From Nonomuraea sp. NPDC059194 (GTDB lineage: Bacteria; Actinomycetota; Actinomycetes; Streptosporangiales; Streptosporangiaceae), in NCBI RefSeq assembly GCF_042754765.1, contig NZ_JBHZBH010000040.1, forward strand, positions 32,657 through 72,656: DNA of 40,000 nt. Direction: 5' to 3'. How positions within the stretch are numbered: the first letter of the stretch is position 1; every line of letters begins with the position of its first letter. Below the pieces are notes generated by a model, which was given only the letters and a program-made list of their open reading frames with translations, was not told the DNA's origin and ran no database searches. Position numbers and translations under genes: made by a program. This document shows positions 6,106-20,527 of the stretch, one piece after another.

Positions 6106-7332
6106 TCACATCCCGTCGGTGCTCCAGCGTCCCGCCGAGCGGCTGCGAACCGGGAGGCTGGAGAGGATCGGAGCGGGGATGGCGTCGCCCTGCTTCCACG
6201 GCCGGCTCCGGCCCCAGTCGTGCGCGCCGGAGTCGATGCGCTCGTCGGCGTGCTCCAGCGTGTGCGGGTCGGCGCCCCAGTCGAGATGGTCGTGCCCGTG
6301 GTCGTGGTCATGGTCGTGCCCGTGGTCATGGTCATGGTCGGTGTGCCCGCCCTGCAGGCGGGCGGCGTCCATGGCCTTGGCGATGGCCAGCAGGCTCTTG
6401 TCGGTGCCGTGCCCGTGCGGAACGAAGTCGACGTCCCTGCCGCCCTGCTCGCGGGCGAAGGCCAGCGAGGCCTGCAGGTCGGCCAGGTCCTTCTCGCTGC
6501 GCGGCGGAGAACCCACTCCGAGGTCATGGCTGGACTGGGACCAGCGCATGCGTCCGCCGTTGGGCCCGTAGTTGACCCCCTCGCCGCCCCAGCGGACCCA
6601 CTCGTTCTGCGTGTACCAGTTCTGGAGCTCGCCGTCGGAGCGCAGGATCCAGGTGACTCCGCCCTCCATGGTGGTGAAGTGGCCGTGCTTGACCCGGGCG
6701 GGACGGAAGAAGTAGGTGCCGTCGATCAGGGTGCCGAAGTTGTACTCCATCTCTCCCTCGATGGTGTACGCCTCCTCGTAGCACGGGTGGTGCGCAAGGC
6801 GGTGGTCGGACCAGCCTTCCTGGGAGTGCACCAGACGGGTGTAGAAGCCGGATACCGGATCGACGTGGAGGTACTTGATGAACAGACCTGGCATCGGCCC
6901 GGCGTTGGGTACGGCGTCCCAGGTCATGGCCTCGGAATCGAGGACGATGACGTCGTCCCTGGAGTCGGTCCAGCGGGCCGCGCCGGGGTCGAAGCCGGCG
7001 TCGCCGTACTCGCGATAGTGAAGGATCTTGGTTCCTTCGGCGAAGGTGATGGCCTCGACCGGGACGCCCTTGGGCGCGTGGACGTAGCCGCCCTTGCCGA
7101 TGGTGCGCGCGCCGTAGGTCATGGAGCCTTCGAGCACGTAGTACTCGGTGTCGGCGTGGTGGACGCCGGGTCCGCGGCCCCACCGGGTGTGGAAGTCGAC
7201 GCGCAGGGAACACGATCCGTCTTCCTCGTCGACCGACAGGCGCCGCTCGCTGGCGCGGCCCTCTCCGCCCACGAGTTCGGCGCCGTGCCAGATGTAGTCC
7301 TTCTCGTGGATGAGTTCAACGTGGGGACGCAT
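6106..7332 (-). CDS. Bicupin-like protein with a C-terminal His/Asp-repeat extension
   Basis: 408 aa. There are two cupin-like segments (..HHADTEYYVLEGSMTY.. and ..HHPCYEEAYTIEGEMEY..HGHF). They are followed by a low-complexity tail containing HTDHDHDHGHDHDHDHGHDH. A GAAGGAG RBS lies 4 nt upstream of the ATG, inside the 3' end of the upstream ligase gene. Confidence 0.6.
   Translation of the reverse strand: MRPHVELIHEKDYIWHGAELVGGEGRASERRLSVDEEDGSCSLRVDFHTRWGRGPGVHHADTEYYVLEGSMTYGARTIGKGGYVHAPKGVPVEAITFAEGTKILHYREYGDAGFDPGAARWTDSRDDVIVLDSEAMTWDAVPNAGPMPGLFIKYLHVDPVSGFYTRLVHSQEGWSDHRLAHHPCYEEAYTIEGEMEYNFGTLIDGTYFFRPARVKHGHFTTMEGGVTWILRSDGELQNWYTQNEWVRWGGEGVNYGPNGGRMRWSQSSHDLGVGSPPRSEKDLADLQASLAFAREQGGRDVDFVPHGHGTDKSLLAIAKAMDAARLQGGHTDHDHDHGHDHDHDHGHDHLDWGADPHTLEHADERIDSGAHDWGRSRPWKQGDAIPAPILSSLPVRSRSAGRWSTDGM
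6286..6345 (-). repeat. Coding His-Asp dipeptide repeat (20 codons)
   Basis: The plus strand reads atggtcgtgcccgtggtcgtggtcatggtcgtgcccgtggtcatggtcatggtcggtgtg. Its reverse complement encodes HTDHDHDHGHDHDHDHGHDH. Confidence 0.9.
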
Positions 7333-8806
7333 GGGACTCCTTCAACTCGCGCTTGAGCACTTTGCCGCCCGCGTTCCGGGGGAGACGCGGGATGATGTGG
7401 ATGACCTTCGGCAGCTTGTAGCCGGCCAGGTGGGGGCGCAGATGTGCCTCGATGTCGGCTGGGGCGGCGGAGCCGACCACGTAGGCGACGATCCGCTCGC
7501 CCCACCTCTCGTCCGGTTCGCCGACGACGGCCGACTCCCGCACTCCCGGACAGCCGTCGATGACGCTCTCGATCTCTCGCGGGTAGACGTTGAGCCCACC
7601 CGTGATGATCATGTCCTTCTTGCGGTCGACGATGCGGAGGAATCCCTCCTCGTCGGCGACGGCGATGTCGCCGCTGGTGAGGAAGCCGTCGGCGGTCATG
7701 CAGGCCCGGGTGGCCGCGTCGTTGTGCAGGTAGCCGTTCATCAGGAACGGGGAACGGCTGAACAACTCTCCGGGAGTGCCCGCCGGGACGGGCGAGCCGT
7801 CGTCATCGAGCAGTCTGACCTCGGTCATGAACCAGGGGTGGCCGACCGAGCCGGCCTTGCGCCGGGCATCGGCGGGACGGAGGTTGGTGACGATGCCCGC
7901 TTCGGTGGAACCGTACAACTCGTGCACACCTGCCCCGGGGAAGGCGTCGAACACCCACTCCTTGAGCGGCACCGGCAGCGCGGCGGCGTTGAAGAACAGC
8001 GTGTCGAGGCTGCTCAGGTCGTGGCGGCGCAACGCCTGATCGCCGAGCGCGCGCAGGGTGTGCGCGTGGGTGGGGACCAGGAACACCGACTGCGCGCGGT
8101 ACTCGGCGACCATGCTCAGCAGGCGTTCCGGGTCCCACGACCGGAGCATGGCGACGGTCCCGCCGGTGTGGATCGCGCCGTAGGCGAAGGCGAACCCGGC
8201 GCCGTGGTACATCGGGGCGACGGCGATCGACCGGCGGCCGGTGCCGAGCTTCCAGTCCAACGCGGCGCAGTAGAAGGTGAGGACCCGGGAGCGGTGGCTG
8301 ATGAGCACGCCCTTGGGATCGCCCGTGGTGCCCGAGGTGTAGGCGACGCAGAAGGGCGAGTTCTCGTCGACCTGGATCTCAGGGTCGCGGGCGGACGCGC
8401 GGGCGAGGGCGTTCTCGTAGGTGTCGCTGACCCGGAGCACGAGGTCCAGATCGTCAGGAGTCAGCTCGGCGAGTGCCTCGTCCACGATGAGTGTTCTCGC
8501 GCCGGAGTGCGCGACGATGAAAGCGATCTCCGCCTGGGTCAGCCGGGGGTTGAGCGGCACCATCACCAGTCCGGCCTTGGCGATCCCGCACGCCACCTCC
8601 GGGTACTCCAGTTGGTTGCCGAGAAGGACCGCCACGCTGTCGCCGGGCGTCAGCCCCGCCGTGAGCAGCACGTTGGCCAGACGGCTGGAGCGCTCGTGCA
8701 GGGCCGAGTAGCTCAGGTGCAGGTCACCGTCCACCACCGCGATGGCGGAGGGGGTGGCCACGGCGAACTCTCGCACGCCGTTGGCGATCGACAACTGGGC
8801 TCTCAT
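7316..8806 (-). CDS. AMP-dependent acyl-CoA synthetase/ligase (class I adenylate-forming enzyme)
   Basis: Start taken at the internal ATG 8806 (MRAQLSIANG..) of track ORF 7316..9586. The AMP-binding motifs YTSGTTGDPKG, ..ELYGSTE.. and ..TGDI..DEEGFLRIVDRKKDMII.GG.NVYPREIE are present. Confidence 0.9.
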   Translation of the reverse strand: MRAQLSIANGVREFAVATPSAIAVVDGDLHLSYSALHERSSRLANVLLTAGLTPGDSVAVLLGNQLEYPEVACGIAKAGLVMVPLNPRLTQAEIAFIVAHSGARTLIVDEALAELTPDDLDLVLRVSDTYENALARASARDPEIQVDENSPFCVAYTSGTTGDPKGVLISHRSRVLTFYCAALDWKLGTGRRSIAVAPMYHGAGFAFAYGAIHTGGTVAMLRSWDPERLLSMVAEYRAQSVFLVPTHAHTLRALGDQALRRHDLSSLDTLFFNAAALPVPLKEWVFDAFPGAGVHELYGSTEAGIVTNLRPADARRKAGSVGHPWFMTEVRLLDDDGSPVPAGTPGELFSRSPFLMNGYLHNDAATRACMTADGFLTSGDIAVADEEGFLRIVDRKKDMIITGGLNVYPREIESVIDGCPGVRESAVVGEPDERWGERIVAYVVGSAAPADIEAHLRPHLAGYKLPKVIHIIPRLPRNAGGKVLKRELKESHASPR

Positions 8807-9255
8807 GACCCGACGCGGGTCTCGTTGATCAGGGTCCGCTGGATGCACTTCCCGCCGCGGATCCACTGCCAGACCCGGCTGCGGGTGTTGCCGTCCGGGC
8901 TCAGCACGATCAGTTCGAACAGCCTGAGGTCGGCGCCGTCCTCCTTGTAGATCCACGACAGGTAGATCGTGTCGTCGTCGACGGCCCAGAACTCGCCTTT
9001 GATCCGCTCGGTGTCGAAGGCGCAGCGGCCCTGGCCCAGGTAGGTGCCGGGGAAGCGGTGTTCTTCGGTACGGCCGTCCTCCCAGGTGTAGCGGTTGATC
9101 TGGTAATAGTCCCAGTCTCCGCTGTCCGGCAGGGTGCAGGTGAGCCGGGCGTGGTGGCGGTCGACGACCGTGCCGTCGGGATCCACGTAGGTGTAGGTGC
9201 CTTCCCAGTCGCCTTCGTGCCGGGCGAGCAGCGGCATCTCTTCCCTGATTCCCAT
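8803..9255 (-). CDS. DUF3598-like small beta-barrel protein
   Basis: 150 aa (MPLLARHEGDWEGTYTYVDPDG..YQINRYTWEDG..). It resembles proteins I recall annotated as the DUF3598 family. A GAGGAA RBS is present, and there is a 4-nt ATGA overlap with the ligase start. Confidence 0.5.
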   Translation of the reverse strand: MGIREEMPLLARHEGDWEGTYTYVDPDGTVVDRHHARLTCTLPDSGDWDYYQINRYTWEDGRTEEHRFPGTYLGQGRCAFDTERIKGEFWAVDDDTIYLSWIYKEDGADLRLFELIVLSPDGNTRSRVWQWIRGGKCIQRTLINETRVGS

Positions 9256-9270
9256 GGCTTGATGTTCCTC

Positions 9271-9993
9271 TCAGGAGAGCCCGGCTCCCACCAGGCTTCC
9301 GATTCCGAAGGTGGCCGCGGCGGCGAGCCCGCCGAGCACCAGTTGGCGCAGAGCGCCGGCCCACCAGGGGCGCGCCGTGAGCCGGGCGACGACGCCTCCG
9401 GCGACCAGCAGCCCGAGGACGCTGACAATGGTCGCCACCAGGAGGCCCGAGGCGCCGAAGATGAACGGCAGCACCGGGATGATCGCGCCGGCGGCGAAGG
9501 CGGTGAAGGAGGAGATGGCGGCCACGTACGGAGAGGGGAGGTCGTCCGGGTCGACGCCGAGCTCTTCGCGGACGTGGACCCGCCACGCGAGTTCCGGCTG
9601 GGCGCTGATCTGCGCCGCGACCTTCTCCGCGGTCTCCGCGTCCAGGCCGCGGACCCGGTAGAGAGCGGTGAGCTCGGCCAGCTCGCCCTCGGGGTTGCGG
9701 GCCAGTTCGGCCTTCTCCACCTCGATCTCAGCCTGCATGAGCTCGGTCTGGGAGGCGACGGACGTGTACTCGCCGGCGGCCATGGAACAGGCGCCGGCGG
9801 CCAGCCCGGCCAGGCCGGTGATGACGACGACCGTGCTCGAAGCGCCGCCGCCTACGACGCCGCTGATGAGGGCGAAGTTGGAGACCAGGCCGTCCATCGC
9901 GCCGAAGACCGCGGGGCGGAGCCAGCCGCCGGTCACGTCTCGGTGGTGCCGGTGCTTCTCAACCGGCGGGGAGGGCAGGACATCTGCACTCAT
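9271..9993 (-). CDS. VIT1/CCC1-family iron/manganese transporter
   Basis: 240 aa. It has the FGAMDGLVSNFALISGV signature, a central amphipathic cytosolic helix region (ELMQAEIEVEKAELARNPEGELAEL) and C-terminal TM helices. Only 15 nt separate it from the next gene downstream. Confidence 0.85.
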   Translation of the reverse strand: MSADVLPSPPVEKHRHHRDVTGGWLRPAVFGAMDGLVSNFALISGVVGGGASSTVVVITGLAGLAAGACSMAAGEYTSVASQTELMQAEIEVEKAELARNPEGELAELTALYRVRGLDAETAEKVAAQISAQPELAWRVHVREELGVDPDDLPSPYVAAISSFTAFAAGAIIPVLPFIFGASGLLVATIVSVLGLLVAGGVVARLTARPWWAGALRQLVLGGLAAAATFGIGSLVGAGLS

Positions 9994-10030
9994 ATGGGTC
10001 CTTTAGCTGGGGGATCTCAGATCTTGTTTT

Positions 10031-10045
10031 GTGACAGTATGTCGT
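10031..10045. promoter_or_regulatory. Candidate operator, degenerate copy of the ACGACA-N3-TGTCGT palindrome
   Basis: The site reads GTGACAgtaTGTCGT followed by GAAAC. It lies in the 122-bp divergent region between the VIT1 start (9993) and the NCS-like start (10116). Confidence 0.55.
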
Positions 10046-10115
10046 GAAACAGTGTTCCGCAAGAGACTCGGGGGTTCGACCAGACCACTTCCGGATCTGC
10101 CCAGGGAGGCCATGG

Positions 10116-10733
10116 ATGCCCCGCAAACTGCTCAGCTGGACCGCCGCTCTCGTGTTCGGGCTGGCACTTTGGCCAAGCCCCGCTGCCGCGGGCGCCCAGC
10201 CCGAACTGACCGCCAGCCAGAGCGCCGACCTCTCCTCCGGTAGCGAGATCACCGTGACCGGGACCGGCTTCGCCCCCAAGACCGCGCTGTTCCTGGCGAT
10301 CTGCGACACCAGGCAGCCTCCGGGCAAGGCCTGTGACACCGGCAACTTCGCCAGGGTCACGACCGACGCGGACGGCAGGCTGGAGGCGAAGGTCAAGCCG
10401 GTCGCGACCTTCGGGGCCACCGACTGCACGGCCACCGCGTGCGCGCTGATGACCAACGACTCCGCCAACCCGCGCGACACCCGCAACTACGCCCAGCTGC
10501 CCATCACCTTCCAGGCGGCCCAGGCCACACCCTCCACGGCGCCGAGTTCCCCGGCGGCCACCCAGCAACCGGCCACCCAGCAACCGGCCGCCCAGCAACC
10601 GGCAGCCTCGCCTGCGGCTGCCGCCGAGGAGGAGAGCGGCTCCAACACCATGCTGGTCGTCGTTCTCGGGATCGCGGCCGTGCTGTTGATCACGGGGATG
10701 GTCGTTCTGGTACGGCGTCGCCGTACCGCCTGA
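10116..10733 (+). CDS. Secreted neocarzinostatin-fold protein with a Pro/Gln linker and a C-terminal TM anchor
   Basis: Start at ATG 10116, after GGGAGG at 10104-10109. The signal peptide is MPRKLLSWTAALVFGLALWPSPAAAGA. The core (ITVTGTGF..AICDT..TDCTATACALMTNDSANP) resembles enediyne apoprotein (neocarzinostatin) domains. It is followed by a (A/T)QQP repeat linker, a hydrophobic helix (MLVVVLGIAAVLLITGMVVLV) and RRRR. Confidence 0.7.
   Translation: MPRKLLSWTAALVFGLALWPSPAAAGAQPELTASQSADLSSGSEITVTGTGFAPKTALFLAICDTRQPPGKACDTGNFARVTTDADGRLEAKVKPVATFGATDCTATACALMTNDSANPRDTRNYAQLPITFQAAQATPSTAPSSPAATQQPATQQPAAQQPAASPAAAAEEESGSNTMLVVVLGIAAVLLITGMVVLVRRRRTA
10557..10601 (+). repeat. 3 x 15-bp in-frame tandem repeat (ATQQP/ATQQP/AAQQP)
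   Basis: gccacccagcaaccg is repeated three times with one substitution, inside the linker of the NCS-like protein. Confidence 0.9.
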
Positions 10734-10744
10734 TCGCCTCCGAC

Positions 10745-10775
10745 GAGGGCGGGCCGGGACGACCGGCCCGCCCTC
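10745..10775. terminator. Bidirectional hairpin between convergent genes
   Basis: A perfect 13-bp stem GAGGGCGGGCCGG / CCGGCCCGCCCTC with a 5-nt loop. It lies between the NCS-like stop (10733) and the ABC ATPase stop (10774). Confidence 0.6.
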
Positions 10776-11733
10776 ACGCATGGGAGATCTCCAGGTCGCG
10801 CAGGCAGGCGCTGCTTCTGCCCGCGTGACCGGTCGGCTCCACCAGGGCCGGCACCACGCTCCGGCAGGCGTCCGCCGCGTACGGGCAGCGCGGGTGGAAG
10901 GCGCAGCCCGCCGGGGGGCGCACGGCCGAGGGCACCTCGCCGGCCAGAGCGGGGAGCTGTCTGCGAGTGGGGTCGGGAACGGGCACCGCGGCCAGCAGCG
11001 TGCGCGTGTAGGGGTGGCGCGGAGAGCCGAAGACCTCCGCCGCAGGCCCGTGTTCGACGATCCTGCCCAGGTACATCACGGCGACATGGGTGGCCAGATG
11101 CCGCGCGATGTCCAGCTCGTGGGTGATCAGCAGATAGCCCAGGCCCAGGGACTCGCGCAGGTCGAGCAGCAGGTTCACGACGGTGGCCTTGACGCCGACG
11201 TCCAGGCTGGCCGTCGGCTCGTCGAGCACGATGGCGCGCGGCTGGGCGGCCAGCGCGCGCGCGACGGTGACGCGCTGGAGCTCGCCACCGCTGATCCCGC
11301 CGGGACGACGGTCCGCGTAGCCCGCGGGCAGCCCGACCTGCTCAAGCAACTCGGCGACGCGCCTGGCGCGCTCGGCGCCGTCCGTGCACAGCTTGTGGAC
11401 GAGAAGCGGAAGCCCGACCGAGTGGCCGATCGTCTTGCGCGGGTTCAGCGCCGCCCAGGGGTTCTGCGAGACGAACTGGACCGCCCGGCGTGCCGTACGG
11501 CTGAGCGCCGGTCCGGCGGGTTCGCCGGCGACGCGCACGCTCCCGGCCGTCGGCGCCAGCAGGCCCACGGCGAGCCGGGCGAGCGTCGACTTGCCACACC
11601 CGGACTCGCCCACCACCGCCAGGGTCTGGCCGGGACCCAGGCTGAGCGAGACGCCTTCCACCGCGTGCACGACCTGCCGCCGGGTGAGCGGATAGCGGTG
11701 GGTGACCTGGTCCAGCTCGACGAGCGGCGTCAT
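10774..11733 (-). CDS. Opp/Dpp-type ABC ATP-binding protein (OppF/DppF-like)
   Basis: Start at internal ATG 11733 (MTPLVELDQV..). Walker A (GESGCGKST), signature (ISGGELQRV) and Walker B (VLDEP) are present. The C-terminal oligopeptide-transporter extension contains Cys residues (GCAFHPRCPYA). Confidence 0.9.
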   Translation of the reverse strand: MTPLVELDQVTHRYPLTRRQVVHAVEGVSLSLGPGQTLAVVGESGCGKSTLARLAVGLLAPTAGSVRVAGEPAGPALSRTARRAVQFVSQNPWAALNPRKTIGHSVGLPLLVHKLCTDGAERARRVAELLEQVGLPAGYADRRPGGISGGELQRVTVARALAAQPRAIVLDEPTASLDVGVKATVVNLLLDLRESLGLGYLLITHELDIARHLATHVAVMYLGRIVEHGPAAEVFGSPRHPYTRTLLAAVPVPDPTRRQLPALAGEVPSAVRPPAGCAFHPRCPYAADACRSVVPALVEPTGHAGRSSACLRDLEISHA

Positions 11734-12632
11734 GGCGCACCCTCCGTGTGGTGGCAGCGGACATCGAGAACGGGCTGGGGATCGTGCTCGGCGCACACCT
11801 CCAGCACGACCGGGCAGCGCGGTGCGAACGGGCAGCCGTGCCGGGCGACCGGGCCGGGGACGAGCGTGCCCAGGCGCGACCCCGCGGCGGCGCGCCCCGG
11901 AAGGGCGGAAAGCAGAGCCCGGGTGTAGGGGTGGCGCGGTGCTGAGAAGATCTGCTCGGTGCTGCCCGTTTCCACCAGGCGTCCGCCGTACATGACCCCG
12001 ACCCGGTCGCAGATCTGCGCCACCACGGCCAGGTCGTGGGTGACGTAGAGGATGCCGAGCCCGAGCCGGTCGCGCAGGTCCAGCAGCAGGCGGAGCACCT
12101 GCGCCTGGACCGTGGGGTCGAGCGTGGTGGTGGGTTCGTCGGCGATGAGCAGGTCGGGCTGCCTGGCCAGCGCGGCGATCAGGATGAGCAGGCGTTGCAG
12201 CTGGCCACCGGAGAAGCGGTGCGGTGAGTCGCGAGGCCGGTCCAGGACCGCGCGCAGTCCCACCTGGCCGAGCAACTCGGTGAGGTCGGCATCGCCCGCG
12301 TGCCACCGCAGCTGCCGCAGGACGGGGGTGACCGGGCTGAGCGAGGTCATGGGGCGTTGCGGGATGACGCCGATGCGGGTGGCGCGCAGGCGGCGCATCT
12401 CCTCGTCGCGGAGCGCGGTCAGCTCCCGGTCGCCGAGCCGTACGGCCTGCGCCGTTGCCTTGGCCCCCGCGGGCAGGACGCGGGTGAGGGCCGCGCAGAC
12501 GCTGCTCTTGCCGCTGCCCGACTCGCCCACCAGGCCGAAGATCTCGCCGTGTTGAAGCGCGAAGGAGACGTCGTGGACGGCTCGCTTGCCGGGATAGTCC
12601 ACGTGCAGGCCGGTGACGGTGAGCAGGCTCAT
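11730..12632 (-). CDS. Opp/Dpp-type ABC ATP-binding protein (OppD/DppD-like)
   Basis: Start at internal ATG 12632 (MSLLTVTGLHV..). Walker A (GESGSGKSS), signature (FSGGQLQRL), Walker B (IADEP) and a C-terminal GCPFAPRCP motif are present. There are 4-nt overlaps on both sides. Confidence 0.9.
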   Translation of the reverse strand: MSLLTVTGLHVDYPGKRAVHDVSFALQHGEIFGLVGESGSGKSSVCAALTRVLPAGAKATAQAVRLGDRELTALRDEEMRRLRATRIGVIPQRPMTSLSPVTPVLRQLRWHAGDADLTELLGQVGLRAVLDRPRDSPHRFSGGQLQRLLILIAALARQPDLLIADEPTTTLDPTVQAQVLRLLLDLRDRLGLGILYVTHDLAVVAQICDRVGVMYGGRLVETGSTEQIFSAPRHPYTRALLSALPGRAAAGSRLGTLVPGPVARHGCPFAPRCPVVLEVCAEHDPQPVLDVRCHHTEGAP

Positions 12633-14158: not shown

Positions 14159-14997
14159 CGAATCTCCTTCAGCGCACGTCCGCCGAGCCGGTCGGAGAGG
14201 GTGTCGCCGATCAGGTTGAAGCCGAGGATCCCGGCGAGCATGACGGCGCCGGGCAGGACGGAGTACCACCAGACGCCCGCGGGCAGGTAGCCGGTGCCAC
14301 CGCCGGTGAGGTTGCCCAGCGTGGCCTGGGGGAGCTGGATGCCGAGCCCGAGGAAGCCGAGGCCGCCTTCGGCGAAGACGGCCAGCGCCATCGCCAGGAA
14401 GGCCTGGACGGCCATGGCCGGGGCGATGTTGGGGAGCAGCTCACCGAGGATGATCCGGGTACGGCGGACGCCGATGACCTGGAGGGCGGGCACGTAGTCC
14501 TGGCTCATCTCGACGAGGGTGGCCGCGCGGGCGACGCGGGCGAAATAGGGGATGAAGGCGATGCCGAGCAGGAGCACGACCTTGGTGGTCATGGTGATGG
14601 GGATCGGCCCCAGGTGCACGGTGGCCGTGCCGCTGAGACCGATGACGAACATGGCCAGCACGAACATGGGGAGCGCCTGGATGATCTCCAGGCTCCGCAT
14701 GATCAGGTCATCGAGCAGGGTGCCGCGCAGGTAACCGGCCAGAATGCCCAAGGGCAGGGCCAGAAGCAGGCCGAGGGCGACCGCGGCCAGGCTGACCAGG
14801 AGCGAGACCCGGGTGCCTGACGCCGTTCGGGCCAGGAGGTCCCGGCCGAGTTGGTCGGTGCCGAAGGGGTGGGCCAGGCTCGGGCCGGTCAGCACGTCGG
14901 GTCCGCCCGCGTTGGGGTCGCCGGTCAGCAGCGGGCCCAGGACGGCCAGCAGGCAGAACAGCGCCGCGCATCCGGCGCCGAACCAGGTCAGCTTCAT
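14155..14997 (-). CDS. Opp/Dpp-type ABC permease (DppC-like)
   Basis: Start at internal ATG 14997 (MKLTWFGAG..). The HPFGTDQLGRD motif and the EAA-loop region (..SQDYVPALQVIGVRRTRII..) are present. There are 4-nt overlaps with both neighbours. Confidence 0.9.
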   Translation of the reverse strand: MKLTWFGAGCAALFCLLAVLGPLLTGDPNAGGPDVLTGPSLAHPFGTDQLGRDLLARTASGTRVSLLVSLAAVALGLLLALPLGILAGYLRGTLLDDLIMRSLEIIQALPMFVLAMFVIGLSGTATVHLGPIPITMTTKVVLLLGIAFIPYFARVARAATLVEMSQDYVPALQVIGVRRTRIILGELLPNIAPAMAVQAFLAMALAVFAEGGLGFLGLGIQLPQATLGNLTGGGTGYLPAGVWWYSVLPGAVMLAGILGFNLIGDTLSDRLGGRALKEIR

Positions 14998-15959
14998 CGC
15001 AGCACCCCCTCGCGCACCCGGGGGTCGATCATGAGCTGGGCCAGGTCCACCAGCAGGTTCGTCACGAGGTACAGCAGGGCCACGGCCAGGCAGCAGCCGA
15101 CGGCGACGGGATAGTCCTGGCGGCGGAAGGAGTCGACCATGAGCTGGCCGATGCCCGGCACGCCGAACACGTTCTCGACCAGGATCGCGCCGCTGACCAG
15201 CATGCCGAGCATCAACCCCATGACGGTGACGACCGGGACGGCCGCGTTGCGCAGGGCGATCCTCCTGACGAGCGCACCCCGCGGCTGGCCGATGGCCCTG
15301 GCGAAGGTGACGTAGTCGCGCTCGAGCACCTCCAGCAGCGAGGCCCGCAGCGTCCGGGCGACCACCGCGAACGCGGGCAGGCCGAGAACGAACGCGGGCA
15401 GCGCCAGACTGGCGAGGTGCCCGCCCAGTCCCTCGCCGGGCGGGATGTAGCCGTCGGCGGGGAAGACTCCGACGACGTAGACGCCGAAGACCAGGACGCA
15501 GACCAGTCCGAGCCAGAAACTGGGCACGGACAGCGCGATCACGCTGACCACCCGGACGAACCCGTCGATGATCGAGCCATGCCGGAGCGCGGCGGCGGCG
15601 CCGGCCAGGACGCCCAGGAACATCCACACACCCGCCGCCACCAAGCCCAGTTCGAGGGATACGGGCAGCCGTTCCATGACGAGGGTGACCACCGGCTGGT
15701 CAGAGAAGATCGAGTTGCCCAGGTCGCCGGAGAACAACCGGCCGACGTAGCGGATGTACTGTTCCGGGATCGAGGCGTCCAGGCCGAGCCTGGCCGCGAC
15801 GGCGGCCCTTCCTTCCTCGCTGTAGCTGTAGCCCAGGAGGGTGTACAGCGGGCTGCCGGGTGACAGCCGCAGTAGGACGAAGACCAGCGAGACCACCACG
15901 AAGACCGTGGTCAGCAGGGCGGTCAGGCGCCGGAGGAGGTAGGAGGCCAAGCAGACCAT
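14994..15959 (-). CDS. Opp/Dpp-type ABC permease (DppB-like)
   Basis: 321 aa. The N-terminus (..YLLRRLTALL..) and the EAA-like region (..ERDYVTFARAIGQPRGALVRRIALRNA) are typical of DppB. The start may instead be the TTG three codons downstream, because GAGG lies only 1 nt before ATG 15959. Confidence 0.85.
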   Translation of the reverse strand: MVCLASYLLRRLTALLTTVFVVVSLVFVLLRLSPGSPLYTLLGYSYSEEGRAAVAARLGLDASIPEQYIRYVGRLFSGDLGNSIFSDQPVVTLVMERLPVSLELGLVAAGVWMFLGVLAGAAAALRHGSIIDGFVRVVSVIALSVPSFWLGLVCVLVFGVYVVGVFPADGYIPPGEGLGGHLASLALPAFVLGLPAFAVVARTLRASLLEVLERDYVTFARAIGQPRGALVRRIALRNAAVPVVTVMGLMLGMLVSGAILVENVFGVPGIGQLMVDSFRRQDYPVAVGCCLAVALLYLVTNLLVDLAQLMIDPRVREGVLR

Positions 15960-15961
15960 TC

Positions 15962-16020
15962 CTCACATTGTTCCTATATGCGGAAAGTCGTATATGTGAG
16001 TGGAAAGAATAGGCCACTCA
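15962..16020 (-). promoter_or_regulatory. AT-rich intercistronic element with two mutually exclusive hairpins
   Basis: The minus-strand RNA reads UGAGUGGccuauucuuuCCACUCACAUauacgacuuuccgcauauaggaacaAUGUGAGGaAUG. CCACUCA can pair with the upstream UGAGUGG, which includes the DUF1838 stop codon. The overlapping CUCACAU can instead pair with AUGUGAG, which abuts the permease start. Confidence 0.35.
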
Positions 16021-16776
16021 GGCCTGCCGGGCATCGTCCGAAGGATGTATTGCGCGCCAGCGGAAGGAGGTCCAGCTGGTCTCGTTGGGGGCCGACCAGG
16101 CTTCCGGCGCCTCCGCGAACCGCGGGCCGTGCGCGGCGATGAACTCCCTGGTCCGCTCAGGAACGGCCGCCCAGTCCGCGAGCTTGGCGCCCCGGCAGTG
16201 GTAGACCAGCGCGCCCGGCCGGTCGGCCATCCGCATCCAGGGCAGCCAGGGGGCGACCCGCGTCCATGACAGCGTGCACGGCACGTTTGCCATGTCGGGG
16301 TCGTCCACATCGGTGGCGCGGGCGAAGAACTGGAACAGCTCCATGGCTCGATAGGTGTCGTCCCCGGAGTTGTCCGGATAGTCGGCGACCGGCAGCGGCG
16401 AAGGGTAGGCGAGGAGCACGTCCGCGTTGACGACCACATCGGTTCCGATCCGGGTGGTCGACGGTTCGAGTCCGCGGGGCCAGTACTGGTTCACCGGGTC
16501 GTTCCAGACGTGAAGGACGTCCACCTTCTCGCCGGTGTAGCGGTTGTCCCAGCCGTCCAGGATCTCGCGCGTGACCGGGTCGAGGTAGAAGGCCGCTTCG
16601 CGGCTGAGGAGCCGATAGCCGCCGTCAGCGGGCACCGCCCGGGACACGTTGACCCCTTCGAACCCGAAGAGGTGGTGGGGGCCGTCCCCCGGCAGCCAGG
16701 CGTAGACGTCGCCCGTCCACCACACGGTGACTTGCGCCCCGCTCAGATCGGCTCGGATACGGACCAGGTCCATCAT
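16018..16776 (-). CDS. DUF1838-like protein
   Basis: Start chosen at ATG 16776 (MMDLVRIRADLSG..), preceded by AAAGGAGG. Motifs such as ..FGFEGVNVSR..GYRLLSREAAFYLDPVTREIL..W.N.YTGEKVDVLHVWNDPVNQ match my recollection of DUF1838 family proteins. It is the first gene of the ABC-transporter operon. Confidence 0.5.
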   Translation of the reverse strand: MMDLVRIRADLSGAQVTVWWTGDVYAWLPGDGPHHLFGFEGVNVSRAVPADGGYRLLSREAAFYLDPVTREILDGWDNRYTGEKVDVLHVWNDPVNQYWPRGLEPSTTRIGTDVVVNADVLLAYPSPLPVADYPDNSGDDTYRAMELFQFFARATDVDDPDMANVPCTLSWTRVAPWLPWMRMADRPGALVYHCRGAKLADWAAVPERTREFIAAHGPRFAEAPEAWSAPNETSWTSFRWRAIHPSDDARQA

Positions 16777-16789
16777 CAGCCTCCTTTTC

Positions 16790-16804
16790 ATGACAATGTG
16801 TCGC
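16790..16804. promoter_or_regulatory. Candidate operator, degenerate copy of the palindrome
   Basis: The site reads ATGACAatgTGTCGC. On the minus strand it is GCGACAcatTGTCAT followed by GAAAAGGAGG, immediately upstream of the DUF1838 RBS. Confidence 0.5.
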
Positions 16805-16833
16805 CAAACCATTGACGTGAGGGGCGGCACTTA

Positions 16834-16848
16834 ACGACACTCTGTCGT
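16834..16848. promoter_or_regulatory. Candidate operator, perfect palindrome ACGACA-ctc-TGTCGT
   Basis: The two 6-nt arms are perfectly complementary and are followed by GAAAC. The site lies 38 nt upstream of the heme oxygenase ATG (16886) and 16 nt downstream of a TTGACG hexamer (16812-16817). Its centre is 44 bp from the centre of site 16790-16804. Confidence 0.65.
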
Positions 16849-16885
16849 GAAACATGATTCCAACGCAATGCCCTGGAGGGCACAG

Positions 16886-17536
16886 ATGACCGAGACCTTC
16901 GCCGACGAGCTCAGGAAGACGACCTGGGGCGATCACGAGGCTGCCGAGCACACCGCCTACCTGGAGGCGTTGATGAACGGCAAGGTCTCCCGCGCCGGCT
17001 ACGCCGAGATGGTCGCCCAGCACTACTTCGCCTACGTCGCGCTGGAAGAGGCCGGCCGGGCGCTGGCCGACGACCCCGTCGCCGCCCCCTTCGTGCGGGC
17101 CGAACTGGAGCGGGTGCCCGCCCTGGAGCGCGACCTGGAGAGCCTGTACGGCCCTGCCTGGCGCGAGGAGATCAAGCCGTCCAAGTCCACGCTCACCTAC
17201 GTCGCGCGCATCAACCAGGTCGCCGACTGGCCCGGCGGCTTCATCGCCCACCACTACACCCGCTACCTCGGCGACCTGTCCGGCGGCCAAGTGATCAGGA
17301 AGGTCGCCGAGCGCACCTACCAGTTCGAGGACGAGGGCGGTATCAGCTTCTACCTGTTCCCCAACATCCCCGACCTCAAGGCGTTCAAGGTCGAGTACCG
17401 GGACCAGCTCAACGCCCTCGACCTGGACGACGTCGAGCGCAAGCGGATCATCCGCGAGGCACTGCTGGCCTACCAGCTCAACACCGAGGTGCTCGTCGAG
17501 ATCGGCAAGCGGCTGCCGGACTACCTGGTCGCATGA
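16886..17536 (+). CDS. Heme oxygenase (biliverdin-producing, HmuO/HO-1 family)
   Basis: Start taken at ATG 16886, 5 nt after GGAGGG; the track GTG at 16847 lies inside the operator. The proximal-His region (TTWGDHEAAEHTAY) is present. The canonical distal-helix motif HHYTRYLGDLSGGQVIRK is essentially identical to AHAYTRYLGDLSGGQVLKK of HO-1. Confidence 0.85.
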   Translation: MTETFADELRKTTWGDHEAAEHTAYLEALMNGKVSRAGYAEMVAQHYFAYVALEEAGRALADDPVAAPFVRAELERVPALERDLESLYGPAWREEIKPSKSTLTYVARINQVADWPGGFIAHHYTRYLGDLSGGQVIRKVAERTYQFEDEGGISFYLFPNIPDLKAFKVEYRDQLNALDLDDVERKRIIREALLAYQLNTEVLVEIGKRLPDYLVA

Positions 17537-18714
17537 GCTTCCCCGTTCCGGTGCGATCCCTGGGCCGGCCGCGTCTGCTGGCCGGACTGCCCGCCGGCGG
17601 GCCTGAGCCGACCGGCGAGCAGGTCGTGGAGATCGCGGCGGCGGCGGGCATCCGCGGCCGGGGCGGAGCGGGCTTCCCGCTCGCGGTGAAGCTCCGCTCC
17701 GTCGCGGCCGGATTCGTGATCGCCAACGGCGAGGAAGGCGAGCCCGCCTCGGTCAAGGACCGCTACCTGCTGCGTGAACAGCCGTCCCTGGTGCTGCGCG
17801 GGCTGGAACTGGCGGCGCGTGCCGTACGGGCCGAGCGATCTTTCCTGTATCTCAGCGACCCCGTCGCGGCTGCTCGGGTGCGGGCGGTCGCGCCCGCCGA
17901 GGTCGAGATCGTGCAGGTGTCACCCGCCTACGTGGCAGGAGAGGAAACGGCCGTCGTCCGCGCCGTCGGCGGCGGCCCGGCGCTTCCGACGGCCAAACCC
18001 CCCCGGCCCTGGCAGTCAGGGCTGCTCGGACGGCCGACCCTGGTCGGCAACGTCGAAACCCTGGCGCAGCTCGCGCTGGCCGTACACCTCGGACCTGAGG
18101 CGTATCGCGCGGTCGGTACTGATGACTCGCCGGGCACCCTTCTCGCCACGGTCTCCGGTGCGGGACAGGCTCCCGCTCTCTACGAGGTGCCGTACGGCAT
18201 GCCGTTCGGCACCCTTGTGGCGCAGCACGTGGGCTCGGCGGCCGAGGTGACCGGCGTCGTGGCGGGCGGGTTCGCCGGCGGTCTGCTACCCGCCCCCGCG
18301 CTCGTCCTGCCCCTGACGCACGCCGCCTTCGCGAGCGCGGGAAGCACGCTCGGCTGCGGCGCCTTCGTGCTGCTGGCCGGTGACTGCCCCGTGGGGGTGG
18401 CCGCCGAACTGGCGCGCTTCTTCGACGAGGAGAACGCCCGCCAGTGCGGGCCGTGCGTCAAGGGCAGCGCGGGGGTCGCCGAGGTGCTGGCCCGGCTCAC
18501 GGCCGGAGCAGCGACCGGCGAGGACGTCGAGCGGCTGGAGCGGTGGGGGGAGGGGCTGGCCGGGCGCGGCAACTGCGCCACGCCCGACGCGGTGTCAGTT
18601 CTGGTCGGTTCGCTCTTCCGGCACCACCGCGAGCGGGTGCGGGCGCATGTGGACTCCAGGTGCGCCACCTGCGCCCCGCACGATTTCCGTATTCGACTTG
18701 AGGAGAATGCATGA
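17533..18714 (+). CDS. NuoF-like (respiratory complex I 51-kDa subunit family) flavoprotein, stand-alone
   Basis: 393 aa with an ATGA overlap to the heme oxygenase stop. It has GIRGRGGAGFP (FMN site), ANGEEGEPASVKDRYLL (NADH site) and YVAGEETAVV..KPPRP..GRPTLVGNVETL. The C-terminal Fe-S region is FFDEENARQCGPCVKG...GRGNCATPD. Confidence 0.75.
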   Translation: MSFPVPVRSLGRPRLLAGLPAGGPEPTGEQVVEIAAAAGIRGRGGAGFPLAVKLRSVAAGFVIANGEEGEPASVKDRYLLREQPSLVLRGLELAARAVRAERSFLYLSDPVAAARVRAVAPAEVEIVQVSPAYVAGEETAVVRAVGGGPALPTAKPPRPWQSGLLGRPTLVGNVETLAQLALAVHLGPEAYRAVGTDDSPGTLLATVSGAGQAPALYEVPYGMPFGTLVAQHVGSAAEVTGVVAGGFAGGLLPAPALVLPLTHAAFASAGSTLGCGAFVLLAGDCPVGVAAELARFFDEENARQCGPCVKGSAGVAEVLARLTAGAATGEDVERLERWGEGLAGRGNCATPDAVSVLVGSLFRHHRERVRAHVDSRCATCAPHDFRIRLEENA

Positions 18715-18899
18715 AGGTCGCCATTGACGCTTCTGTCTGCGACGGCAAGGGCTACTGCAAGCGCTTCGCCCCAGAGGTGTTCGGCCTGGATGAGTGGGGC
18801 TACGGCAAGGTGCTCGTCGAGGAGGTGCCGCCGGAGCAGGAGGCCAACGCCCTGGCTGCGGTGGAAGCCTGCCCGCTCCAGGCCATCAACACGATGTGA
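18711..18899 (+). CDS. Small single-cluster ferredoxin (3Fe-4S/4Fe-4S type)
   Basis: 62 aa with an ATGA overlap to the upstream stop. The cysteine pattern CDGKGYC ... CP matches actinomycete single-cluster ferredoxins. Confidence 0.8.
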   Translation: MKVAIDASVCDGKGYCKRFAPEVFGLDEWGYGKVLVEEVPPEQEANALAAVEACPLQAINTM

Positions 18900-18903
18900 A
18901 CGA

Positions 18904-18930
18904 GGGCTGCCTCCGGGTGGGAGGCAGCCC
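18904..18930. terminator. Bidirectional hairpin between convergent genes
   Basis: A perfect 11-bp stem GGGCTGCCTCC / GGAGGCAGCCC with the loop GGGTG, followed by GTTTG. It lies between the ferredoxin stop (18899) and the second heme oxygenase stop (18940). Confidence 0.65.
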
Positions 18931-18939
18931 GTTTGCCGC

Positions 18940-19602
18940 TCAGCCGAGGTCGAAGGTCTCGCCCAGCTCGACGGTGATGGCGGCGTTGCCGTTGAAGGCC
19001 TGGTTGCCCTCGTCCACCAGTGCCGGGACGTCCTCGTCGGTGACCGGGATCGCATTCATCCGGGCGTGGTATTCGCCGACGAACGCGTGAGTGTCCTCGA
19101 TCTCGGCGAAGTCGTAGAAGGCGGTGCCTTCGCCTCCGGTCAGGCCGTAGGTGGTCGCGAGCATCTTGCCGAGCGTGGCCCCGCCGTGCAGGTAACCCGC
19201 GTAGCGGATCCAGTGATGGGGCACCAACCCGAGCGGCCACTCGTCCCTGACCCGCTCCAGCCGGGCGACGTAGGCGTCGGTGGCCGGTGAGGTCTCCAGG
19301 GCCTGTCGCCAGTCCCGGCCGTAGAAGTGCGCCAGGTCCTTCTCGATCGCCTCGGTGCGGTGGAGTTGCGGCAGGTGCAGCACGCCGACCGCCGGGTCGT
19401 CGCGCAGCGCCTCCGTGGTGCGCTCCAGGGCGGCATAGACGGCGTGGAAGCGCACCAACCAGAGGCGGTAGGCCTCCTCGGTGAGTTTGCCCTGGAACAG
19501 GGCGAGCATGTAGGGCGTGTTCTCGGCCGCACGATGGGCCTCCGTCGTCCCCTTGTAGAGCAGCCGGGACAGAGGATCGCGGTCCTGCGAGATGGGTTCC
19601 AT
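18940..19602 (-). CDS. Divergent heme-oxygenase paralog
   Basis: Start at internal ATG 19602 (MEPISQDRDPLSRLLYKGTTEAHRAAENTPYM..), after GAGGAG plus 4 nt. The proximal-His motif is canonical. The distal-helix motif reads HHWIRYAGYLHGGATLGK instead of ..YLGDLSGGQ... Confidence 0.75.
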   Translation of the reverse strand: MEPISQDRDPLSRLLYKGTTEAHRAAENTPYMLALFQGKLTEEAYRLWLVRFHAVYAALERTTEALRDDPAVGVLHLPQLHRTEAIEKDLAHFYGRDWRQALETSPATDAYVARLERVRDEWPLGLVPHHWIRYAGYLHGGATLGKMLATTYGLTGGEGTAFYDFAEIEDTHAFVGEYHARMNAIPVTDEDVPALVDEGNQAFNGNAAITVELGETFDLG

Positions 19603-19640
19603 GGGTCTCCTCATCTTTATGACGACATGCCACAAAGATA

Positions 19641-19655
19641 ACGACAACTTGTCGT
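19641..19655. promoter_or_regulatory. Candidate operator, perfect palindrome ACGACA-act-TGTCGT
   Basis: The arms are perfectly complementary and are followed by AAAAAC. The site lies in the 80-bp divergent region between the second heme oxygenase start (19602) and the TetR start (19683). An isolated ACGACA half-site lies at 19622-19627. Confidence 0.65.
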
Positions 19656-19682
19656 AAAAACAATGGAACGGCGTTCCTGGTC

Positions 19683-20324
19683 GTGGCTGTGATGGTCTCG
19701 GCTGCTGTCGCGTGCGAAGATGCCGATGTGCCCCGAATCTCCGCCGCGAACCTGAGCGAGCATCGCGCGCAGACCCTGGAACGCATCTTCGCAGCGGTCT
19801 CCCGGCTGTCGCGCAGCCAGGCCACCGACGACATCTCCATGACCGACGTCGCCGCAGCGGCCGGAGTGGCACGCACCGTGCTCTACAACTACTTCCCCGA
19901 CAAGGCCTCGCTGCTGCTGGCCTTCAGCGAGCGGGTCACCGAGTACTTCGTCGAGCGGTTCGAGCGCGACCTGCCGACGTCAGCCGGCGCATCCGAACGG
20001 GTTGCCGTGTTCATCCGGCTCACCCTCGACGGGCTGCTGGCTCATCCCCACCCCGACGCGGCCGAGATGTCCGTGGCTCTGGGCGCCGAGGCCTATCACG
20101 CGCTGGCGGGACATGTCGCGCCGATGCAGCGGATCCTCGCCGAGATCATCGCGGAGGGCGTGCGAACGGGGGAGTTTCGCCCGCTCGAACCTGACACTGC
20201 GGCACGCAGCGTCATGGGGGTCATCGGTGCCGAGCGCATACCGCTCGTTCAAGGGCGGATTGGCCTGGACGAGGCGCGGCGCGCCGTGACGTCCTTCGTG
20301 CAAAACGCTCTCCGGAAGGAATAG
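19683..20324 (+). CDS. TetR-family transcriptional regulator
   Basis: The N-terminal HTH (ISMTDVAAAAGVARTVLYNYFPDKASLL) is typical of TetR. The start is uncertain: GTG 19683, ATG 19692 and GTG 19728 are all possible. Confidence 0.85.
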   Translation: MAVMVSAAVACEDADVPRISAANLSEHRAQTLERIFAAVSRLSRSQATDDISMTDVAAAAGVARTVLYNYFPDKASLLLAFSERVTEYFVERFERDLPTSAGASERVAVFIRLTLDGLLAHPHPDAAEMSVALGAEAYHALAGHVAPMQRILAEIIAEGVRTGEFRPLEPDTAARSVMGVIGAERIPLVQGRIGLDEARRAVTSFVQNALRKE

Positions 20325-20527
20325 CTGCCCAGGAACGCCCACGACCTCGTACCCGCCGGCCGAGCGCGAGACCCCGTTTCGTGGAGGGTCGCCCACCCGA
20401 TGTGGCAAGCGGGCTGAGCGCCCCGGTGGGACCAGCATCAGTCCACCCTCAGCGCCCGATCCAGCTTGCCCTATTCTAAAAATCTTAGCTATAAGGTAAA
20501 TTTGCCAGGTCGAGAGGGAGGAAGCAG

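Follow-up and report, generated by a model that had tools for sequence, protein, structure and literature searches.

A candidate TetR-controlled regulon for heme catabolism in Nonomuraea and its conservation across the Streptosporangiales

Introduction

The 40,000-nt stretch of DNA analyzed here (hereafter the window, whose own positions are used throughout) derives from Nonomuraea sp. NPDC059194 (Streptosporangiaceae, order Streptosporangiales; contig NZ_JBHZBH010000040.1) and has a G+C content of about 70%; its cupin and DUF1838 proteins show 100% identity to proteins of this strain. Between positions 6106 and 20324 it carries a block of genes encoding a TetR-family protein together with two heme oxygenases (HO1 and HO2), a NuoF-like flavoprotein, a ferredoxin, an ATP-binding cassette (ABC) importer, a DUF1838 protein, a neocarzinostatin (NCS)-fold protein and a VIT1-type transporter. 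A sequence-only reading of the block had proposed six transcription units that share a palindrome and are governed by the TetR protein. We followed up this proposal with profile searches, structure models and a comparison of related loci, and on balance we lean towards the interpretation that the block forms a one-repressor regulon for heme catabolism, in which heme would release the TetR protein from its operators.

The TetR-family heme sensors known so far, HrtR, FhtR and HatR (PMC12670364, PMC11442138), switch efflux pumps only, and the known control of heme oxygenase (HO) is exerted by iron repressors or two-component systems. If a single one-component repressor does couple the breakdown and import of heme to the supply of electrons and the disposal of iron, this would constitute a different solution to heme homeostasis, here in free-living soil actinomycetes.

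Results

Gene identities were assigned by Pfam profiles with their curated cut-offs, and NCBIfam models were run as well. Pfam bore out every one of the 16 gene calls of the sequence-only reading, including its statement that TetR is the sole regulator in the block; no curated NCBIfam family covers TetR, either heme oxygenase, DUF1838, VIT1 or the cupin encoded at the far end of the block. The regulator, the heme oxygenase genes with their companions and the putative operators are arranged as follows, the bit scores of the operators referring to the position weight matrix described below.

19728..20324, + strand: TetR-family repressor, likely start GTG 19728 (open reading frame (ORF) open from GTG 19683)
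16886..17536, + strand: HO1, canonical heme oxygenase (PF01126, E = 2.1e-61, 207.7 bits, cut-off 23)
17533..18714, + strand: NuoF-like flavoprotein with flavin mononucleotide (FMN) and 4Fe-4S domains (Pfam Complex1_51K and NADH_4Fe-4S)
18711..18899, + strand: 62-aa single-cluster ferredoxin (Pfam Fer4_15/Fer4_13)
18940..19602, - strand: HO2, divergent canonical-family paralog (PF01126, E = 1.2e-53, 182.4 bits, cut-off 23)
10028..10048, no strand: putative operator of the VIT1/NCS divergent region (30.8 bits; block CTTGTTTTGTGACAnTATGTCGTGAAACAGTGTTCC conserved)
16787..16807, no strand: putative operator A of the HO1/DUF1838 region (30.8 bits)
16812..16817, + strand: -35-like hexamer TTGACG of the HO1 promoter (upstream of GACACT with an 18-nt spacer)
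16831..16851, no strand: putative operator B of the HO1 promoter (32.4 bits)
19616..19636, no strand: degenerate second putative operator of the HO2/tetR region (9.7 bits)
19638..19658, no strand: main putative operator of the HO2/tetR region (ATAACGACAACTTGTCGTAAA; 28.5 bits)

The palindromic core GACANNNTGTC occurs five times in the 40-kb window, where 0.36 occurrences are expected, and none of 100 shuffled sequences reached this number. A 21-bp weight matrix built from 111 sites, all of them from other genomes and none from the window, has the 21-bp palindrome TTnATGACAnnnTGTCATnAA as its symmetrised consensus and detects exactly four sites of 28–32 bits in the window (at 10028, 16787, 16831 and 19638), the next best site scoring 9.7 bits. 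The sites contain a 15-nt perfect core inside the 21-bp motif, and the weight matrix reveals that the three central bases of the symmetrised 15-nt consensus (TTTATGACACAGTGTCATAAA) vary. All four strong sites are confined to three divergent promoter regions of the block, in agreement with the earlier claim that the six units begin within three divergent intergenic regions, each of which bears an operator. A core match at 33725 is intragenic, scores less than 8 bits and was rejected as a chance match.

In the HO1/DUF1838 region, operator A lies 5 nt from the ribosome-binding site of DUF1838, and the left half of operator B, GACACT (16836–16841), coincides with the expected position of the -10 hexamer. 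A generic sigma-70 scan of the window reported no promoter, and the TTGACG-N18-GACACT arrangement emerged only through phylogenetic footprinting. In the HO2/tetR region, a second site at 19616..19636, at a distance of 22 bp from the main one, abuts the ribosome-binding site of HO2; it scores weakly because its core carries two substitutions, yet it is conserved across genera and present as a perfect site in Actinomadura (L026). An operator spacing of 22–23 bp, as found here, recurs in other loci. The operator between VIT1 and the NCS-fold gene is also present in the loci L081, L087 and L088. No IdeR, Zur or Nur boxes were detected in the window.

Two further sequence elements accompany these operators. 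Operator B of HO1 and the NCS operator are each immediately followed by a conserved block, GTGAAAC-N4-TTCC (16852–16875 and 10049–10065); it is lengthened to TTCCAATGCAA in the HO1 leader, kept across four to five genera and explained by neither the palindrome nor the promoter hexamers. In the tetR leader, a small palindrome (GGAACGGCGTTCC, 19665–19677) lies past the operator and ahead of the probable start codon and could form an RNA hairpin or be another protein's site. It is kept as GGAAC-N3-GTTCC in three other Nonomuraea loci, not in Microtetraspora, Actinomadura or Spirillospora.

A search of reference genomes with a profile of the TetR protein yielded 80 loci, every one of them in the Streptosporangiales; as the loci were collected via TetR, the comparison is blind to genomes that possess the motif without this TetR. 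A PF01126 heme oxygenase is encoded within 10 kb of tetR in 73 of the 80 loci, and in all 73 the palindrome is found immediately upstream of HO. Altogether, 1.6 Mb of tetR loci from other genomes contain 150 sites of at least 20 bits, compared with none after shuffling. The pairing of TetR and HO with operators in 73/80 loci supports the proposal that a single TetR-type regulon links the units. The sequence-only reading had also named a gene neighborhood peculiar to this strain as a ground for giving up its proposal; palindrome and neighborhood were both found to persist far beyond it.

The loci fall into two architectures. Most genomes carry a minimal one, composed of operator A, TTGACG, operator B, HO and tetR, in which a major facilitator superfamily (MFS) pump is encoded downstream of tetR in 46 loci and directly after it in about 36. 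In the expanded architecture, tetR is placed opposite HO2, the HO1-NuoF-like-ferredoxin genes opposite DUF1838 and five ABC genes, and the NCS-fold gene opposite VIT1. With orthologously placed operators, this arrangement is found in Nonomuraea, Microtetraspora, Streptosporangium, Actinomadura and Spirillospora, hence in five genera of two families, and the main HO2/tetR site has an orthologous counterpart in 11/11 expanded loci. The window holds this expanded version, and its version of the regulon contains no MFS pump. Two genomes harbor both architectures (L002 with L051, and L003 with L066), and a neighbor-joining tree is compatible with the TetR proteins of expanded clusters being a lineage apart from the 69 minimal-type ones, the separating branch being short. 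From these comparisons, we take the ancestral module to be a compact operators-HO-tetR(-MFS pump) unit, of which the window carries a paralogous, expanded version.

The promoter of HO is highly constrained across these loci. Operators A and B are spaced by exactly 44 bp in 60 loci, and the TTGAC[GC] between both operators is invariant in all expanded loci and in 60 other loci. The 60-locus consensus TTT.ATGACA.gGTGTCGTCAtCagcTTGACG-N13-TTTGTGACACTtcGTCATgAAAc has the layout siteA-TTGACG-N13-TTTGT-GACACT, with an 18-nt spacer and with operator B overlapping an extended -10-like TGnGACACT. Judged from its sequence, this layout is the anatomy of a promoter closed by steric occlusion. The 21-bp palindrome overlaps the -10 element of the HO promoter as is typical of operators of the TetR family, and its binding by the TetR protein itself is predicted. 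Since the operator overlaps the HO promoter, repression is implied, and we consider it very likely that the adjacent TetR represses HO through these promoter-overlapping operators.

Control by an iron repressor was considered and rejected, since the window lacks IdeR boxes and an IdeR-like box occurs near HO in only 1 of about 89 loci. The absence of such boxes indicates that iron-repressor control is not the primary circuit and that the iron repressor customary in actinobacteria does not control these genes directly. The single box near HO is a near-perfect IdeR-type one (TTAGCTGAGGCTAACCTAA, 2 mismatches) in Streptosporangium amethystogenes (L074:7871–7889), about 160 bp upstream of the HO operator.

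Individual loci deviate from the two architectures. Genes inserted between HO and tetR vary from locus to locus (a LacI regulator, DoxX with a TetR, KatG and others) and are uninformative; in Nonomuraea purpurea (L045:5374–7602), the genes inserted between the operator-HO unit and tetR include a 742-aa ORF whose length and N-terminus resemble, by eye, those of the catalase-peroxidase KatG, a heme enzyme, and other genomes carry unrelated insertions at this spot. Where insertions of 6–9 kb separate HO from tetR, the site remains with HO. Both Microtetraspora loci (L004 and L007) are without DUF1838 and keep both operators, HO1-NuoF-like-ferredoxin, HO2, tetR and VIT1/NCS, and in Microtetraspora niveoalba (L007:2600–3300) both ATPase genes of the importer are apparently lost. 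These losses may reflect a decay of the uptake arm. Microtetraspora fusca (L006) encodes a TetR of the expanded lineage (67% identical) in a locus without HO or operator that contains only an unrelated Opp system, so that this TetR is either an orphaned copy or has its regulon elsewhere in the genome.

The TetR protein of the window matches the Pfam profiles TetR_N (34.6 bits, cut-off 24) and TetR_C_27 (44.3 bits, cut-off 26.1). All its homologs begin at MPRISA, and the start codon is therefore probably GTG 19728. The sequence-only reading had correctly placed a palindrome upstream of tetR, but its distance of 28 nt was counted from the GTG at 19683 and amounts to about 75 nt from the probable start. 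An AlphaFold2 model of the protein (predicted local distance difference test (pLDDT) score 86.8) contains nine to ten helices, and Foldseek aligned it to many TetR structures with template modeling (TM) scores of 0.6–0.7. A kinship to HrtR beyond the superfamily level was rejected, as HrtR is found neither among the top 60 PDB sequence matches to the family profile nor among the top 50 fold matches. The family is small, with 27 cluster representatives at E <= 1e-30 among 1.84 billion. Numbered after the 213-aa ORF, H121, H123 and H144 never vary in the clade linked to HO, and M148 is almost invariant. Helix 5 carries at its end an AHPHP motif that is restricted to the closest TetR clade.

The palindrome might instead be bound by a different, unlinked regulator, in which case TetR would control only the MFS pump or respond to a lipophilic compound unconnected with heme, for instance an acyl-CoA. 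This would fit the observation that the motif accompanies HO rather than tetR, none of the seven tetR loci without HO having a site, tetR-MFS loci among them. It would likewise fit the acyl-CoA and drug sensors found as fold neighbors of the TetR protein and the fact that TetR-MFS pairs are common drug-efflux units. However, tetR stands beside HO or in its operon in 73/80 loci and has its own copy of the site in expanded clusters; no other regulator is encoded in the block, and two-fold palindromes of 15–21 bp are typical of TetR operators (PMC7858072). We thus regard an unlinked regulator as highly improbable and retain this TetR as the putative motif-binding protein.

The protein products of the HO1 operon and HO2 were compared to characterized enzymes. 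The best solved relatives of HO1 in the PDB are 1we1 (Synechocystis HO-1, 1.4e-42), HmuO and human HO-1. Like every HO of the minimal loci, it possesses the proximal His, which aligns with that of 1we1, and an intact GDLSGGQ distal helix (YTRYLGDLSGGQ). HO2, whose best PDB match is also 1we1 (6e-37), has its proximal His aligned as well, whereas its distal helix reads GYLHGGA instead of GDLSGGQ; IRYAGYLHGGAT is found in all HO2 orthologs, the distal Asp being replaced by Tyr. From this substitution, the activity or the product of HO2 may differ.

The start of the NuoF-like gene overlaps the stop codon of HO1. Its product matches HydB, Nqo1 and HoxF in the PDB at 1e-52 and reaches 215 bits against the NuoF equivalog TIGR01959, below the cut-off of 558. 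The gene lies between HO1 and the ferredoxin gene, not in a nuo operon, and its product has only the FMN and 4Fe-4S domains in common with NuoF. The 62-aa ferredoxin contains three Cys in a C-x5-C...CP pattern, which we take to be that of the 3Fe-4S type, the partner of P450s in actinomycetes. To our knowledge, the reductase partner of HO is still unknown in many bacterial species. The NuoF-like protein is a candidate NAD(P)H-dependent reductase for HO1, and an electron route from NAD(P)H via FMN/4Fe-4S and the ferredoxin to HO1 would be the obvious one.

Divergently to HO1, an operon for an importer begins with DUF1838, and the NCS-fold gene lies beyond its end.

16018..16776, - strand: DUF1838, first gene of the importer operon (Pfam E = 4e-76)
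10774..15959, - strand: five-gene Opp/Dpp/Nik-type ABC importer (Pfam)
14994–15959 and 14155–14997, - strand: importer permeases (BPD_transp_1)
12629–14158, - strand: family-5 binding protein of the importer (SBP_bac_5)
11730–12632 and 10774–11733, - strand: importer ATPases (oligo_HPY C-terminal domain)
10116..10733, + strand: NCS-fold protein (Pfam Neocarzinostat E = 3.8e-14)

The set of Opp/Dpp/Nik components is complete (SBP_bac_5, two BPD_transp_1 and two oligo_HPY ATPases). The binding protein is nearest to GsiB, NikA and HbpA and also matches DppA, all below the curated equivalog cut-offs; heme is a putative substrate of the importer. DUF1838 is predicted to be a beta-barrel without a signal peptide (AlphaFold2 pLDDT 93.6), and its orthologs occupy syntenic positions in four genera. 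We noted a terminator-like hairpin on the - strand (16011–16025; AGGCCTGAGTGGCCT with a T-rich tail) that immediately follows the stop codon of DUF1838 and precedes the first permease gene, where it may attenuate read-through into the importer genes; the overall count of such hairpins in the scan is not above chance. The NCS-fold protein has a signal peptide and a C-terminal membrane anchor, scores 65.8 bits against the NCBIfam chromoprotein model (below the cut-off of 86) and is a candidate surface ligand receptor. Its gene faces VIT1 across a common operator in four genera.

The role of these genes could be unrelated to heme, for instance in the uptake of peptides, nickel or a metallophore or in manganese efflux, if the importer, DUF1838, the NCS-fold protein and VIT1 had come under common regulation merely through insertion beside the HO promoter. 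The best matches of the binding protein are glutathione, nickel and peptide binders, the DUF1838 and cupin families are widespread in non-heme contexts, and operator A precedes HO also in loci that lack a divergent gene. Against a chance insertion speaks that the gene set, its order and the operator positions persist in five genera and two families and that the NCS/VIT1 pair has a dedicated operator away from HO. We judge this explanation unlikely and continue to treat these genes as members of a heme regulon.

On the far side of the NCS/VIT1 operator, the VIT1 unit comprises four genes.

9271..9993, - strand: VIT1/CCC1-family Fe2+/Mn2+ transporter (Pfam E = 1.1e-68, 231.7 bits, cut-off 28.1)
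8803..9255, - strand: DUF3598_N-like protein, 150 aa (Pfam E = 1.5e-6, weak)
7316..8806, - strand: AMP-binding acyl-CoA synthetase (Pfam)
6106..7332, - strand: DUF4437/ChrR-cupin bicupin (Pfam)

The tight packing that had been described for this unit was found as a 15-nt gap between the VIT1 stop codon and the DUF3598-like gene, followed by overlaps of 4 nt and 17 nt. The profile match of VIT1 spans positions 1–214 of 214, and the operator accompanies the gene in Nonomuraea, Microtetraspora, Streptosporangium and Spirillospora. The DUF3598-like protein has no PDB match and no further Pfam match; DUF3598 follows VIT1 in Nonomuraea, Streptosporangium and Spirillospora, not in Microtetraspora, and also exists without VIT1.

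As a pair, the genes of the acyl-CoA synthetase and the DUF4437 cupin are widespread and highly conserved. Elsewhere, in Actinomadura meyerae, Planobispora and Solwaraspora, this pair, partly with DUF3598, is part of clusters with IclR/GntR, MmgE-PrpD, family-III CoA-transferase, HpcH/HpaI and MaoC genes, and these catabolic clusters (L082–L084) contain no VIT1, HO, TetR or operator. The sequence-only reading of this unit as iron-handling is thus retained for VIT1, with its operator linkage in four genera, but probably does not extend to the acyl-CoA synthetase, the cupin and, in part, DUF3598; synthetase and cupin are probably passengers that are co-transcribed with VIT1 by read-through rather than iron-handling genes. 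The cupin also recurs together with a cyclase and an amidohydrolase in such clusters (L082, L083, L084 and L081:11400–21200), the AMP-binding synthetase being present in L081–L083; by analogy, they resemble a CoA-dependent organic-acid (itaconate-like) catabolic pathway. The His/Asp tail ascribed to the bicupin exists as an H/D-rich segment (HTDHDHDHGHDHDHDHGHDH, encoded at 6286–6345), yet it is located about 60 residues ahead of the C-terminus rather than at it. This stretch is found in 72/120 cupin homologs, including genomes without a link to VIT1 or HO, which suggests that it is an intrinsic metal-binding feature of the DUF4437 cupin family.

Outside the block, a markedly AT-rich island (cctattctaaaaatcttagctataaggtaaatttgcc, 20455–20520) is located upstream of an aldehyde dehydrogenase gene (20528–21982), the 3′ end of which is overlapped by a MarR-family gene (21943–22494, - strand). 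The island probably represents a further promoter/operator region that has no part in the TetR regulon.

Discussion

With the targets at hand, we asked which signal the TetR protein is most likely to sense. Several arguments favor heme: the conserved targets all deal with heme or with the iron derived from it, TetR repressors of catabolic pathways usually respond to the pathway substrate, heme-sensing TetR proteins exist, and the co-induction of an importer, oxygenases and a VIT1-type transporter fits a heme signal and neither low nor high iron. We thus consider heme the most coherent candidate for the inducer, with a preference that is real but modest.

With the same repressor and regulon, the inducer could be another tetrapyrrole, namely biliverdin or the coproporphyrin/coproheme of the actinobacterial heme pathway, in which case the role of the system would be to adjust the formation of bilins or the detoxification of porphyrins and not the acquisition of external heme. 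The targets are heme oxygenases in this case, too, and most genomes contain only HO-tetR-MFS without an importer, as would suit endogenous tetrapyrroles. Without any addition of heme, Streptomyces produces biliverdin and coproporphyrin (PMC10060970), and the altered distal pocket of HO2 could reflect a different substrate. On the other hand, the induction of a catabolic enzyme by its product would be unusual, the importer and the surface protein of the expanded cluster point to an external substrate, and the Pfam scan revealed no bilin reductase or bilin-binding gene in the cluster. Taken together, a tetrapyrrole other than heme appears quite unlikely.

It is also conceivable that TetR senses a metal, Fe2+ or another, directly via a histidine-rich site and serves as an iron-status regulator in the place of IdeR. 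The invariant H121, H123 and H144 and the nearly invariant M148 of the HO-linked clade could provide such a site, the scarcity of IdeR boxes described above would be explained, and VIT1 belongs to the regulon. However, induction by high iron would suit VIT1 and not heme import or degradation, and induction by low iron the reverse. Moreover, H144 and H27 are kept in distant TetR relatives without AHPHP, which argues for a structural role of these residues, and metal-sensing TetR proteins are generally rare. Direct metal sensing is in our opinion very unlikely, which leaves heme as the inducer in the model that we propose.

According to this model, the dimeric TetR repressor (19728–20324) would bind the 21-bp palindromes. 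At the HO promoter, the two operators, 44 bp apart from center to center, would place one repressor just upstream of the -35 element TTGACG and the other over the -10 element GACACT and the likely transcription start, so that the bound repressor would block RNA polymerase. As the promoters are divergent, it would also block the DUF1838-importer operon, and a like logic would apply at HO2/tetR, where it would result in autoregulation, and at NCS/VIT1. When cytoplasmic heme builds up, it would bind to the C-terminal domain of the repressor, with the His-Pro-His-Pro motif as candidate ligand, and the repressor would depart from the DNA. This would jointly induce the Dpp/Nik-type importer with the surface NCS-fold protein and the cytosolic DUF1838 barrel, the two heme oxygenases, and the chain from NAD(P)H via the NuoF-like flavoprotein and the ferredoxin that would feed the oxygenase. 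The VIT1 transporter, in its presumed direction of transport, would remove surplus iron that is released.

Several observations weigh against a heme-released repressor as the center of this block. The motif is assigned to this TetR by association, and across the 80 loci it tracks HO more tightly than tetR. The nearest sequence and structural relatives of the protein are acyl-CoA sensors (FadR, KstR) and drug sensors, not HrtR, and the conservation of H27 and H144 far outside the HO-linked clade leaves AHPHP as the sole specific candidate ligand. HO2 is without the distal-helix Asp of canonical enzymes. The DUF1838 model has no solved structural neighbor, so that its fold yields no functional clue, and homologs of DUF1838 elsewhere occupy unrelated contexts. 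Finally, the binding protein of the importer resembles GsiB, NikA and HbpA more than DppA of M. tuberculosis.

A more far-reaching interpretation is that an undescribed family of heme-sensing TetR proteins, marked by His-Pro-His-Pro, acts as the primary switch of HO across the Streptosporangiales and that the expanded form is a complete new actinobacterial heme-acquisition pathway. Its parts would be an NCS-fold heme receptor, a Dpp/Nik-type heme importer, a DUF1838 heme-handling barrel, HO with a NuoF-like/ferredoxin chain, a second HO with an altered site and VIT1 as an iron overflow valve. As a whole, we put this forward as a tentative idea that is more doubtful than the regulon itself. The regulon nevertheless offers testable functions for orphan families such as DUF1838, the membrane-anchored NCS-fold protein and the stand-alone NuoF-like flavoprotein, and it suggests a candidate reductase devoted to heme oxygenase in a bacterium. 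Operator and repressor form a compact pair whose conservation is extremely high (150 instances); provided that its ligand is heme, the pair could also be used in high-GC hosts as a heme biosensor.

Comparison with known systems

The literature that was searched contains no description of a TetR protein that controls heme oxygenase, nor of a NuoF-like partner of HO; among the papers listed for HO together with NuoF and ferredoxin, none mentions NuoF. Two candidate prior descriptions were set aside: a Streptomyces atratus paper had matched because "tetrapyrrole" begins with "TetR", and a paper on Sp1418 is unrelated.

The sequence-only reading gave the operator of HrtR as reportedly reading ATGACACAGTGTCAT; an exact-string literature search for these letters gave no match. 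The length of 15 nt that it gave agrees with the literature (PMC10368836, PMC12839281). HrtR-HrtBA of Lactococcus lactis and the system described here are alike in their TetR-family repressor, autoregulation (predicted here), short palindromic operator and proposed derepression by heme. HrtR controls only an ABC efflux pump, whereas the predicted targets of the TetR in the window are HO1, HO2, the importer and VIT1. For HrtR, R46/Y50 and the heme ligands His72/His149 have been described (reviews; PMC10368836), in contrast to the AHPHP motif at the end of helix 5 as candidate ligand here.

HatRT of Clostridioides difficile is a heme-induced operon of a TetR and an MFS transporter (PMC12670364, PMC6303022), and the minimal loci of the Streptosporangiales likewise pair tetR with MFS; likened by gene layout, they resemble hatRT with an oxygenase in front. 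FhtR of Enterococcus faecalis has two palindromic operators in the -35/-10 region (PMC7858072), where paired palindromes are also found here. The HatR and FhtR systems include no heme oxygenase and mediate efflux only, whereas in the Streptosporangiales the operator precedes HO, with tetR and MFS downstream.

Within the Actinomycetota, Corynebacterium hmuO is controlled by DtxR and the two-component systems HrrSA/ChrSA (PMC7337898), and the HO of Streptomyces sits together with HtaA/HmuTUV-type genes (PMC10060970). These systems share with the window a canonical PF01126 HO, a heme-connected induction, which is proposed for the window, and clustering with uptake genes (PMC7337898, PMC10060970). 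They differ in that hmuO relies on an iron repressor and two-component systems, in contrast to the one-component TetR without an IdeR/DtxR box found here, and in that uptake proceeds via HtaA/HmuTUV, whereas the window encodes a Dpp/Nik-type importer without HtaA domains and, instead, the NCS-fold and DUF1838 proteins.

That family-5 binding-protein importers can carry heme is documented, including the Dpp-mediated heme import of M. tuberculosis to which the sequence-only reading had pointed (PMC6751184, PMC10954201). The DppABCD system of M. tuberculosis is likewise a five-component, family-5 ABC importer from an actinobacterium with a link to heme, which is putative in the window. The binding protein of the window is not an ortholog, as it matches the Dpp type only at about 1e-19 and GsiB/NikA better. 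Furthermore, M. tuberculosis degrades heme by MhuD, whereas the window encodes canonical heme oxygenases.

Known reductase partners of bacterial HO are the ferredoxin-NADP+ reductase of Leptospira and Fpr of Pseudomonas (PMC5542595). In both, HO receives its electrons from an NAD(P)H-dependent flavoprotein, alone or together with a ferredoxin, as is proposed here. The candidate in the window differs from these partners in being a stand-alone NuoF-like FMN/4Fe-4S protein with a small ferredoxin, both encoded in the HO operon itself.

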